Below, piece after piece: positions 41,034-42,372 of a stretch of DNA of 51,754 bases (positions are counted from its first letter, which is position 1; each line of letters starts with the position of its first letter). Under the pieces are notes generated by a model, which was not told the origin of the DNA, made no database searches, and saw only the letters and a list, made by a program, of their open reading frames with translations. Origin of the DNA: a virus (taxonomy: Duplodnaviria; Heunggongvirae; Uroviricota; Caudoviricetes); the IMG/VR virus record IMGVR_UViG_2861038214_000004, one strand, 5' to 3'. The position numbers and the translations under genes are program-made.

Positions 41034-41576
41034 GTGGCTAAAAAAGGCGACTTTAAGCCTACCCAGAATGAGGTTGACCAAGCTATTACTCGCTTGAAAA
41101 AAGTAACTTTTAGCGGAGTTACATGGACCGGAAGTGAGGGACGAACCCCAATCTGGTTTAAATTGGATCTCAAAGCTTTTGATGAAATTGGCAACCCAAT
41201 CACAGGCATAAGATTTATGCTTCACTGGCGTCCTCCTATCGTTGAAGGGGTGGATATAGTGAAGATTTCATTTGTGATGTTTCTTCATGACAGGCGCATT
41301 TACGCGCTTGACCCGTACCCTGCGGATAACAAGCCACACCGTAATAAATCTATAGTGAACCATCCAGATTTTGTTGAGGTGGCTCGAGGTCCTCACTATC
41401 ACATGTACTTCGAATCAGCTGGGGAAGAAATTGCACTTAAGCTTGAAACGAACATCAAGCCAGATGATTTTTTTGGCTACTGGAATTATTTTTGCGAGGC
41501 GCTTAATATCATATATGAAGGCAGCCCACCTTTACCTAATCAAGATAAATCAGGTCAGCTATCATGGGAAATGTAA
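41034..41576 (+). CDS. hypothetical protein A of the rex-slot cassette, 180 aa, GTG start
   Basis: ORF begins 46 nt after cI stop on the same strand; no family or TM segments recognised. Confidence 0.6.
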   Translation: MAKKGDFKPTQNEVDQAITRLKKVTFSGVTWTGSEGRTPIWFKLDLKAFDEIGNPITGIRFMLHWRPPIVEGVDIVKISFVMFLHDRRIYALDPYPADNKPHRNKSIVNHPDFVEVARGPHYHMYFESAGEEIALKLETNIKPDDFFGYWNYFCEALNIIYEGSPPLPNQDKSGQLSWEM

Positions 41577-42340
41577 CGTGTTCAACAGTCATATCTAAGC
41601 TCGGGTTTGAATGCCACCCAATGAGCGACACGTTGCTGCGCGTTATTAGTCCCTTCACATACTACGATGATTGTGAGCAGATAAGTGTATTCGTTCAAGA
41701 GATGAGTGGTCAGTATAGGGTTACAGACTACTGCGATACATTGATGAATATTGAATCACGCGGCATCCACCTGACTAAAAAGAAAATTGATCTGATCAGG
41801 TCATCACTCGCTTCGCAAGGAATTTCATTAAATGACTCTGGAGAGATATCTGCGTGGGCAGATGAGTCGTCCGTTGGACAGGTAACTGCAAATGTTATTC
41901 GTGGTGGGATTCTTGCATCCGCCCAAACTGCTGATTGGTATGCTGAGGTCAAAGACGATAAGTTCGAAAAATGTGTAATCAGTTACTTAAAATCAGCAGG
42001 GCTTGGGAAGCGACTAGCCTTAAAGGAAAAAGTGAAAGGTATTAGTGGGCATAACATTACTGTTCCGTTAACGCTAAGGAATGAGTCTCGACTAATACCA
42101 CCAAAACGCGGGTTTACGGTAAGCCTTGCCAGCAGTAAGGGATGGAATACTGCCCACTCAACAGTTGGGAAGATTGTTGACTTAAGTCAGGTCGTTCCTG
42201 ACATAAACAATAGATTTGTAATAGTTGACAGCGATGGGTTAACACCTGAGCTACAGCAACTATCACTACTATTTAATGATACCGCACGAGTGTTGCCATT
42301 CCATACCAGAGACTCTTGGATTGAGTCTCTGGTAGCCTAG
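41564..42340 (+). CDS. hypothetical protein B of the rex-slot cassette, 258 aa
   Basis: Overlaps upstream ORF by 13 nt (translational coupling); followed directly by a strong terminator; no family recognised. Confidence 0.6.
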   Translation: MGNVTCSTVISKLGFECHPMSDTLLRVISPFTYYDDCEQISVFVQEMSGQYRVTDYCDTLMNIESRGIHLTKKKIDLIRSSLASQGISLNDSGEISAWADESSVGQVTANVIRGGILASAQTADWYAEVKDDKFEKCVISYLKSAGLGKRLALKEKVKGISGHNITVPLTLRNESRLIPPKRGFTVSLASSKGWNTAHSTVGKIVDLSQVVPDINNRFVIVDSDGLTPELQQLSLLFNDTARVLPFHTRDSWIESLVA

Positions 42341-42372
42341 AAAAACCCGGCCTCAGCGCCGGGTTTTCTTTG
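42341..42372 (+). terminator. intrinsic terminator ending the cI-cassette transcription unit
   Basis: cccggc / gccggg stem with 6-nt loop followed by TTTTCTTTG; A-run upstream makes it potentially bidirectional. Confidence 0.65.

Follow-up and report, generated by a model that had tools for sequence, protein, structure and literature searches.

A two-gene cassette in the rex slot of a lambdoid phage as candidate prophage exclusion cargo

The subject of this study is a two-gene cassette in a 51,754-nucleotide (nt) stretch of viral DNA (Caudoviricetes; IMG/VR record IMGVR_UViG_2861038214_000004), the whole of which is called the window here. The two genes, A and B, lie directly 3' of a cI-type repressor gene and on its strand. 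In lambda the slot 3' of cI holds rexA-rexB, which are transcribed with cI from pRM in lysogens. The immunity region of the window is lambda-like, in inverted orientation, and comprises the following features.

Preceding cI, minus strand: O/P replication genes, cII and cro
40292..40987, plus strand: cI-type repressor (HTH_3 and Peptidase_S24, from Pfam), first gene of the presumed operon
40988..41033, plus strand: 46-nt spacer between cI and A, with a GGTGA Shine-Dalgarno-like element at 41020-41024
41034..41576, plus strand: gene A, 180 amino acids, GTG start
41564..41576, plus strand: 13-nt overlap of A and B, ATGGGAAATGTAA
41564..42340, plus strand: gene B, 258 amino acids, ATG start, TAG stop
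42341..42372, plus strand: intrinsic terminator, homologue of lambda tImm, closing the cI-A-B unit
42373..42777, plus strand: OL/pL-like region and leader, by alignment conserved with phage ev207 and partly with lambda
42778..43050, plus strand: N antiterminator, downstream boundary of the slot

The slot and its comparison with lambda

Aligned with lambda, the window is nearly identical across the 3' part of cI, and the C-terminal domain is common to the window repressor and lambda cI. This near-identity ends at the cI stop codon. Beyond it only scattered short matches to lambda are seen, where the cI-rexA spacer and rexA of lambda lie, until homology returns at AACCCGGCCTCAGCGCCGGGTTTTCTTTGCC, just 3' of the B stop in the window and of the rexB stop in lambda, and continues through the region upstream of OL. 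As homology breaks at the cI stop and returns at the tImm hairpin, the cassette exactly replaces rexA-rexB in the cI...tImm unit, and the first-pass annotation of this DNA, which had placed the two genes in the rexAB slot, was right in this respect. All of its coordinates are likewise correct, including those of the two open reading frames (ORFs), the GTG start, the 13-nt overlap and the 46-nt gap after the cI stop. The exchange is also found elsewhere: in some prophages of IMG/VR, a near-identical cI of the lambda type is followed by a window-type cassette instead of rexAB; in one of them (L006) the same 46-nt spacer as in the window lies 3' of cI. In the identical prophage in RefSeq, cI is annotated as a "LexA family protein".

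At its downstream end the slot is closed by a hairpin right after the B stop, with the arms CCCGGC (42346-42351) and GCCGGG (42358-42363) around a 6-nt loop, followed by TTTTCTTT. Its predicted fold has an energy of -21.4 kcal/mol (z = -2.9), and none of 200 shuffled sequences was equally stable. A simple terminator scan did not pick it up. Its sequence hardly differs from that just 3' of rexB in lambda, which is the tImm terminator. The strong terminator described at 42341..42372 in the first reading of the sequence is borne out. The region at 42373..42777 then begins a separate leftward early operon. A scan of the spacer between cI and A returned neither promoter nor terminator signals, and across the region promoter-like matches were no commoner than in shuffled sequence, on which ground an internal promoter for B or for the cassette was rejected. 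The G+C content of the cassette (42-44%) is uninformative because it equals that of the surrounding immunity region.

The cassette shares with lambda rexAB the slot between the cI stop and tImm, the arrangement of two genes on the cI strand, flanks that are homologous up to the cargo boundaries and, presumably, the pRM/pRE transcription unit. The proteins, in contrast, are unrelated. Neither A nor B matched RexA (PF15969) or RexB (PF15968) in Pfam or PADLOC at E ≤ 1, and BLASTP against lambda RexA and RexB returned only fragments with E ≥ 0.9. RexB is polytopic and has 51 hydrophobic windows; there is none in A or B, where the highest 19-residue Kyte-Doolittle means are 1.22 and 0.79, respectively, compared with 2.39 for lambda RexB. 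Neither A nor B contains a transmembrane helix. The predicted folds differ as well, B combining a chaperone-like with a PD-(D/E)xK fold and A having an unmatched beta fold. A Rex identity, already denied in the first-pass annotation along with transmembrane helices, is thus rejected on profile, BLASTP and membrane-segment evidence alike. Since hydrophobic segments are absent and the folds unrelated, a Rex-like ion-channel mechanism is excluded for A and B.

Two conserved soluble proteins

Homologues of A and B at 37-99% identity occur across many genomes, from Escherichia, Klebsiella, Enterobacter, Cronobacter, Kosakonia and Yersinia to Salmonella, Edwardsiella, Providencia, Serratia and Erwinia. 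Measured against copies that are 65-91% identical, the ratio of nonsynonymous to synonymous substitution rates (dN/dS) is 0.06-0.10, with synonymous sites saturated. Both genes are therefore real and under strong purifying selection. They also travel together: A stands immediately upstream of B in all 80 related IMG/VR viral loci, and the pair follows at least 20 distinct repressors at a distance of 45-400 nt, mostly of the HTH+S24 type and in a few cases short HTH proteins. Among 5426 complete Escherichia coli genomes, the allele of the window (type 1) was present in 61 and a sister allele (type 2) in 239, about four times as many; the cassette was always chromosomal or in a prophage, type 1 is found in genomes of the O104:H4 outbreak lineage, and a search of plasmids gave no homologue of B. 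The cassette is thus dispensable and accessory. In RefSeq the identical pair carries the labels "hypothetical protein" and "DUF1828 domain-containing protein".

The 13-nt overlap of A and B, kept in all type-1 copies and reduced to 4 nt in the distant pairs of Pseudomonas and Burkholderia phages, implies that translation of the two genes is probably coupled. In every copy examined, over the same range of 37-99% identity, A begins with a codon other than ATG (GTG, or TTG in type 2), and this conserved weak start may keep the level of A low.

Two copies deserve separate mention. E. coli G5 (NZ_CM127462.1, 1..2600) carries a 100% identical copy of window positions 40990-42380 (1391 nt) in a prophage that an IS3-family element interrupts at ninB and that abuts a truncated sitD; the cassette is therefore still present in a prophage that has degraded. 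In IMGVR_UViG_2548876529_000017 (L048, at about 2544-3934), a copy with 99.5% DNA identity over its full length has both the A and the B frame broken, which means a pseudogene or else an error in sequencing.

AlphaFold2 models A as a globular, soluble, beta-rich protein (predicted local distance difference test, pLDDT, 86; predicted template modelling score, pTM, 0.83). Family members, about 20-45% identical, all share R88, H121 and H123, and nearly all share D93 and H102; the C-terminal tail (S173-G174-Q175...) is conserved, yet disordered in the model. The family is rare: a search of 1.84 billion representatives gave 42 clusters at E ≤ 1e-3. Apart from truncated fragments and one 1089-residue repetitive match, all of these are stand-alone proteins of about 140-185 amino acids. 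The distant members are mostly metagenomic singletons. A search with the A model found no solved structural relative, and the profiles of both families found nothing in the PDB by sequence at E ≤ 10. A cupin-like reading of the "HxHx3E" motif of A was dropped because there was no cupin among the fold matches. The only domain similarity of A is to DUF6978, below the gathering cut-off (23.3 versus 29.6 bits) and confined to the C-terminal 60 residues; weak matches of this kind recur in 15 of 20 family members, and a few relatives have a precomputed PF22398 match.

B is likewise modelled as globular and soluble (pLDDT 82, pTM 0.69), in two domains. Residues 30-112 match Pfam DUF1828 at 40.9 bits, well above the cut-off of 22, and the N-terminal domain that contains them (about 1-125) is predicted to fold like type III secretion system chaperones and DUF2170. 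For the C-terminal domain (about 130-258) the model has a restriction-endonuclease-like (PD-(D/E)xK) alpha/beta core. By sequence, this half is best described as a putative divergent DUF1829 domain (clan PDDEXK). The window protein itself does not match the DUF1829 profile at E ≤ 10, but its distant relative gp47 of Burkholderia phage phi644-2 does so at 23.4 bits (cut-off 22.2), and the type-2 allele has been assigned DUF1829 with an HHpred probability of 98.8 (DeWeirdt et al., Table S5). The invariant polar residues of B are E135, S161, H163, K181, D206, R217 and D222, of which H163 and K181 are the ones conserved at the expected catalytic strands. The first reading of the sequence recognised no domain in either protein and called the cassette unrecognised, and neither statement holds: B has the DUF1828 and DUF1829-like halves and A its weak DUF6978 match, both proteins strongly match PHROG families, albeit of unknown function, and the family or its sister allele had been singled out before by two defence-prediction resources. 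NCBIfam has a family for neither A nor B.

Exchange of cargo and links to defence

To survey the slot, we searched IMG/VR with the conserved 3' end of cI and then located the tImm hairpin downstream. Both boundaries were present at 34 loci (among L087-L131; the slot corresponds to window positions 40988-42345), whose cargoes, 600-1550 bp long, fall into at least 11 unrelated classes. The cassette of the window is the commonest class, with nine loci, and rexAB occurs at one. One of the other classes matches the PADLOC candidate PDC-S13 (a Bro-N protein, E = 2e-86), and another the two-gene candidate PDC-M63A/B (DUF6932 and a partner, 2e-41 and 7e-45). Further cargoes are an NYN-domain protein, an SDH-type ClpP-like protease, and two pairs that each combine a soluble protein with one whose hydrophobic segments apparently span the membrane. 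This supports the premise that exclusion genes are exchanged in this slot. The cassette belongs to a known kind of element, as candidate prophage exclusion cargo at the rex locus, and is made up of proteins unlike those of any characterised system.

Exchange also takes place between alleles of the cassette. The same cI (100% identity) and N (99-100%) flank either type 1 or type 2, between which A is 40% and B 51% identical; the alleles agree in slot, architecture and conserved residues, and differ in the start codon of A as described above. Such a swap of alleles between identical flanks is a pattern typical of fast-diversifying defence cargo. Type 2 is carried by phages ev207 (gp49/gp48), ev017, PhiR63_2 and PhiR57_1, by an Stx1a phage, by the E. 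coli type strain and by E. coli Nissle 1917 (CIW80_RS24100/24095, WP_001062368.1/WP_000968518.1). In Nissle 1917, a lambdoid prophage at icd (NZ_CP022686.1, 4785650-4793956) has the cI of the window followed by the type-2 cassette, and an IS3-family element with a partial integrase truncates this prophage just past sieB. Its type-2 genes, EcN_1291/1292, adjoin the repressor gene EcN_1293. The resistance of Nissle 1917 to lambda and Stx phages has been ascribed in part to an "unidentified factor" of the prophage with cI EcN_1293, in a study that tested another prophage gene ("pr") and not the cassette (PMC5987069). We regard the connection of this resistance with the type-2 cassette as a lead only.

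More distant pairs keep the arrangement. The pair of Burkholderia phage phi644-2, gp48/gp47, is close to a cII-like gene, and that of Pseudomonas phage phPA-G (VB_PaD_phPA-G, PP083311.1) lies 3' of a CI-like repressor. The A-like ORF of phPA-G (3420/3489..4004) is unannotated and falls in a 670-bp "gap" that precedes the DUF1828 gene. Its product begins with MAK..., contains the motif HPHLHMP and carries a GQMGFDV tail; at its stop codon the ORF overlaps the start of B by 4 nt. Between the repressor and this pair stands an extra gene for 216 amino acids (2680..3330), weakly matching PDC-S48 (3e-6), which suggests stacked cargo behind the repressor. In one group of type-2-like loci (L051-L055; for instance L051, 383..724), the repressor and A are separated by an inserted gene for a 113-residue DUF3024 protein (3e-27).

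With respect to known defence systems, A and B matched none of the named systems in PADLOC-DB v2, the candidate PDC-M24 aside. The PDC set comprises 145 candidates derived from genes that lie within BREX, DISARM and type I restriction-modification (RM) loci (bioRxiv 10.1101/2024.01.29.577857), a setting that does not depend on prophages. A matches PDC-M24A at E = 4e-4 (18.7 bits, positions 78-135 of 146, the C-terminal third of the profile) and B matches PDC-M24B at 5e-7 (27.5 bits, positions 4-167 of 256, the N-terminal two thirds). The relatives in ev207, phi644-2 and phPA-G match PDC-M24 too, the A proteins at 5e-4 to 0.02 and the B proteins over the full or nearly full length of the profile, those of ev207 and phi644-2 at 7e-10 and 1e-10, respectively. 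Like the cassette, PDC-M24 consists of two adjacent genes on the same strand, A then B, of similar sizes (profiles of about 146-151 and 255 amino acids); its context, however, is BREX, DISARM and type I RM loci, whereas that of the cassette is a prophage immunity region. In the literature on PDC-M24, DUF1828 and DUF6978 we found nothing functional, and PDC-M24 was mentioned in no paper found.

A second predictor points in the same direction. DefensePredictor lists the type-2 proteins WP_000968518.1 and WP_001062368.1 as "predicted novel defense gene" (Science 2026, PMC13092281), with mean log-odds of 5.6-6.3 for B and 4.9-5.4 for A, above its stringent cut-off of 4 (PMC13092281). Moreover, DUF1829 occurs in a validated anti-phage system, the two-protein DS-6/HipAD, where it belongs to the non-kinase partner DS-6B; in the AlphaFold3 model of DS-6, DS-6B is predicted to bind the kinase and, more weakly, DNA (DeWeirdt et al., Science 2026). 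The likeness is limited to this one domain, for which the similarity of window B is itself below detection: DS-6/HipAD pairs a HipA-like kinase with DUF1829 fused to DUF3037, whereas in the cassette a DUF1829-like domain is fused to DUF1828 and the partner has a His cluster.

Another point of comparison is BstA, the gene of which lies just 3' of a prophage repressor. BstA is a single protein where the cassette has two, and we know of no domains that it shares with A or B. BstA is reported to be a prophage-encoded defence in temperate phages of Gram-negative bacteria, a role like that proposed here for A and B (PMC8585504).

Proposed function and alternative explanations

Altogether, we lean towards the reading that the cassette is a moron segment, co-transcribed with cI, whose two soluble proteins act jointly against phages and protect the lysogen. 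The first-pass annotation had suggested a phage-exclusion or abortive-infection module expressed in lysogens, and this suggestion has gained support from lines that are independent and purely computational, namely the PDC-M24 matches, the DefensePredictor score of the sister allele, the cargo hotspot and the replacement of one allele by another. Several observations weigh against it. The PDC-M24 matches of A and B are weak and cover only part of each profile, the pair might go uncalled by PADLOC itself, and PDC-M24 is presented by its authors only as a candidate (bioRxiv 10.1101/2024.01.29.577857). The type-2 accessions and the term "DUF1828" are missing from the DefensePredictor table of transcription units picked for screening, so the type-2 pair was not screened there, and the validation rate of that pipeline is 45% (PMC13092281). 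No hypervariable specificity patch is seen between types 1 and 2, the divergence being evenly spread, and the canonical D...(D/E)xK signature is not evident in B, where the predicted strands 164-171 and 181-186 contain no conserved acidic residue, although B may have a variant site. Co-transcription of cI, A and B from the maintenance promoter, ending at the tImm-like terminator, is the natural reading, for which the argument is analogy with lambda.

The analysis establishes the anatomy, the slot, the strict linkage of A with B, the fold assignments, their conservation and the weak homology to defence candidates; beyond this, we infer expression in the lysogen, complex formation, a defence phenotype and the identity of the effector along the following lines. 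Transcription from the maintenance promoter would run through cI, A and B and stop at the tImm-like terminator, and the two proteins would be made in coupled fashion and form a complex. In this complex B may be the sensor or scaffold, with its DUF1828 domain binding either the conserved tail of A or a phage product, while its degenerate PD-(D/E)xK (DUF1829) domain could bind nucleic acid. A may be a metal-dependent enzyme by virtue of its His/Asp cluster (R88, D93, H102, H121 and H123), and would be the effector that is released or activated on infection, giving a module of the superinfection-exclusion or abortive-infection type. Put together in its most specific form, which we offer tentatively and consider rather unlikely, this would be a new abortive-infection system in which the effector A, a small enzyme with a beta fold not seen before and a metal site formed by three His and one Asp, is restrained through its tail by the DUF1828 domain of B and freed when B recognises a phage product or DNA. 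The two alleles would then differ in phage specificity, and could explain part of the resistance of Nissle 1917 to lambda and Stx phages.

The main rival keeps the anti-phage role and swaps the parts, with B as a non-canonical PD-(D/E)xK nuclease acting on incoming or replicating phage DNA or, abortively, on host DNA, and A as sensor, specificity or regulatory subunit. This is conceivable, if not very probable: the lack of an obvious D...(D/E)xK motif in the two strands named above makes nuclease activity doubtful, the DUF1829 protein of DS-6/HipAD is modelled as a non-catalytic, DNA-binding partner of a kinase toxin, and the invariant His cluster of A looks more like that of an enzyme. We consider it unlikely that the cassette serves the prophage in another way than against phages, as a toxin-antitoxin-like addiction module or as a modulator of lysis-lysogeny or stability (compare the antagonism to CI reported for RexA). 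One would not expect a modulator adapted to a single repressor to turn up behind at least 20 distinct ones, the slot holds many unrelated cargoes, several of which match defence candidates from BREX and RM loci, and the family has been flagged by two independent defence predictors.

There is very little probability left that the cassette is a moron serving host fitness or virulence with no relation to phages, or a decaying selfish passenger that has no function at present. The presence of the cassette in pathogenic and probiotic strains alike (O104:H4 and Nissle 1917) and the copy with broken frames would agree with this, but the purifying selection (dN/dS 0.06-0.1), the cytoplasmic, soluble nature of both proteins with no hydrophobic segment, and the conservation of the pair across phages of Enterobacterales, Pseudomonas and Burkholderia argue against it.

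If the cassette is indeed an active defence, DUF1828-DUF1829 together with a His-cluster protein that lacks a solved fold relative would be a new pair of protein families, and lambda rexAB would be one case of a recombination-delimited defence hotspot that extends from the cI stop to tImm and accepts at least 11 interchangeable cargoes. It would also open PDC-M24 and a high-scoring, unscreened DefensePredictor prediction to experiment. Since alleles reside in Nissle 1917, in the type strain and in the O104:H4 lineage, host range in phage therapy and lysogenic conversion by Stx phages could then be affected. The hypothesis, which will not surprise specialists, is solid and can be tested directly in these medically relevant strains.

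Two neighbouring features complete the picture of the region. Just past N, on the minus strand, lies the superinfection-exclusion gene sieB (43067..43648); the neighbourhood of the immunity region therefore holds at least two candidate exclusion functions. Within the pL leader, an ORF of 60 amino acids (42618..42800, plus strand), listed in RefSeq as the hypothetical protein WP_000438342.1 and present also in Nissle 1917, overlaps the start of N and may have been annotated in error over the nutL/leader region.

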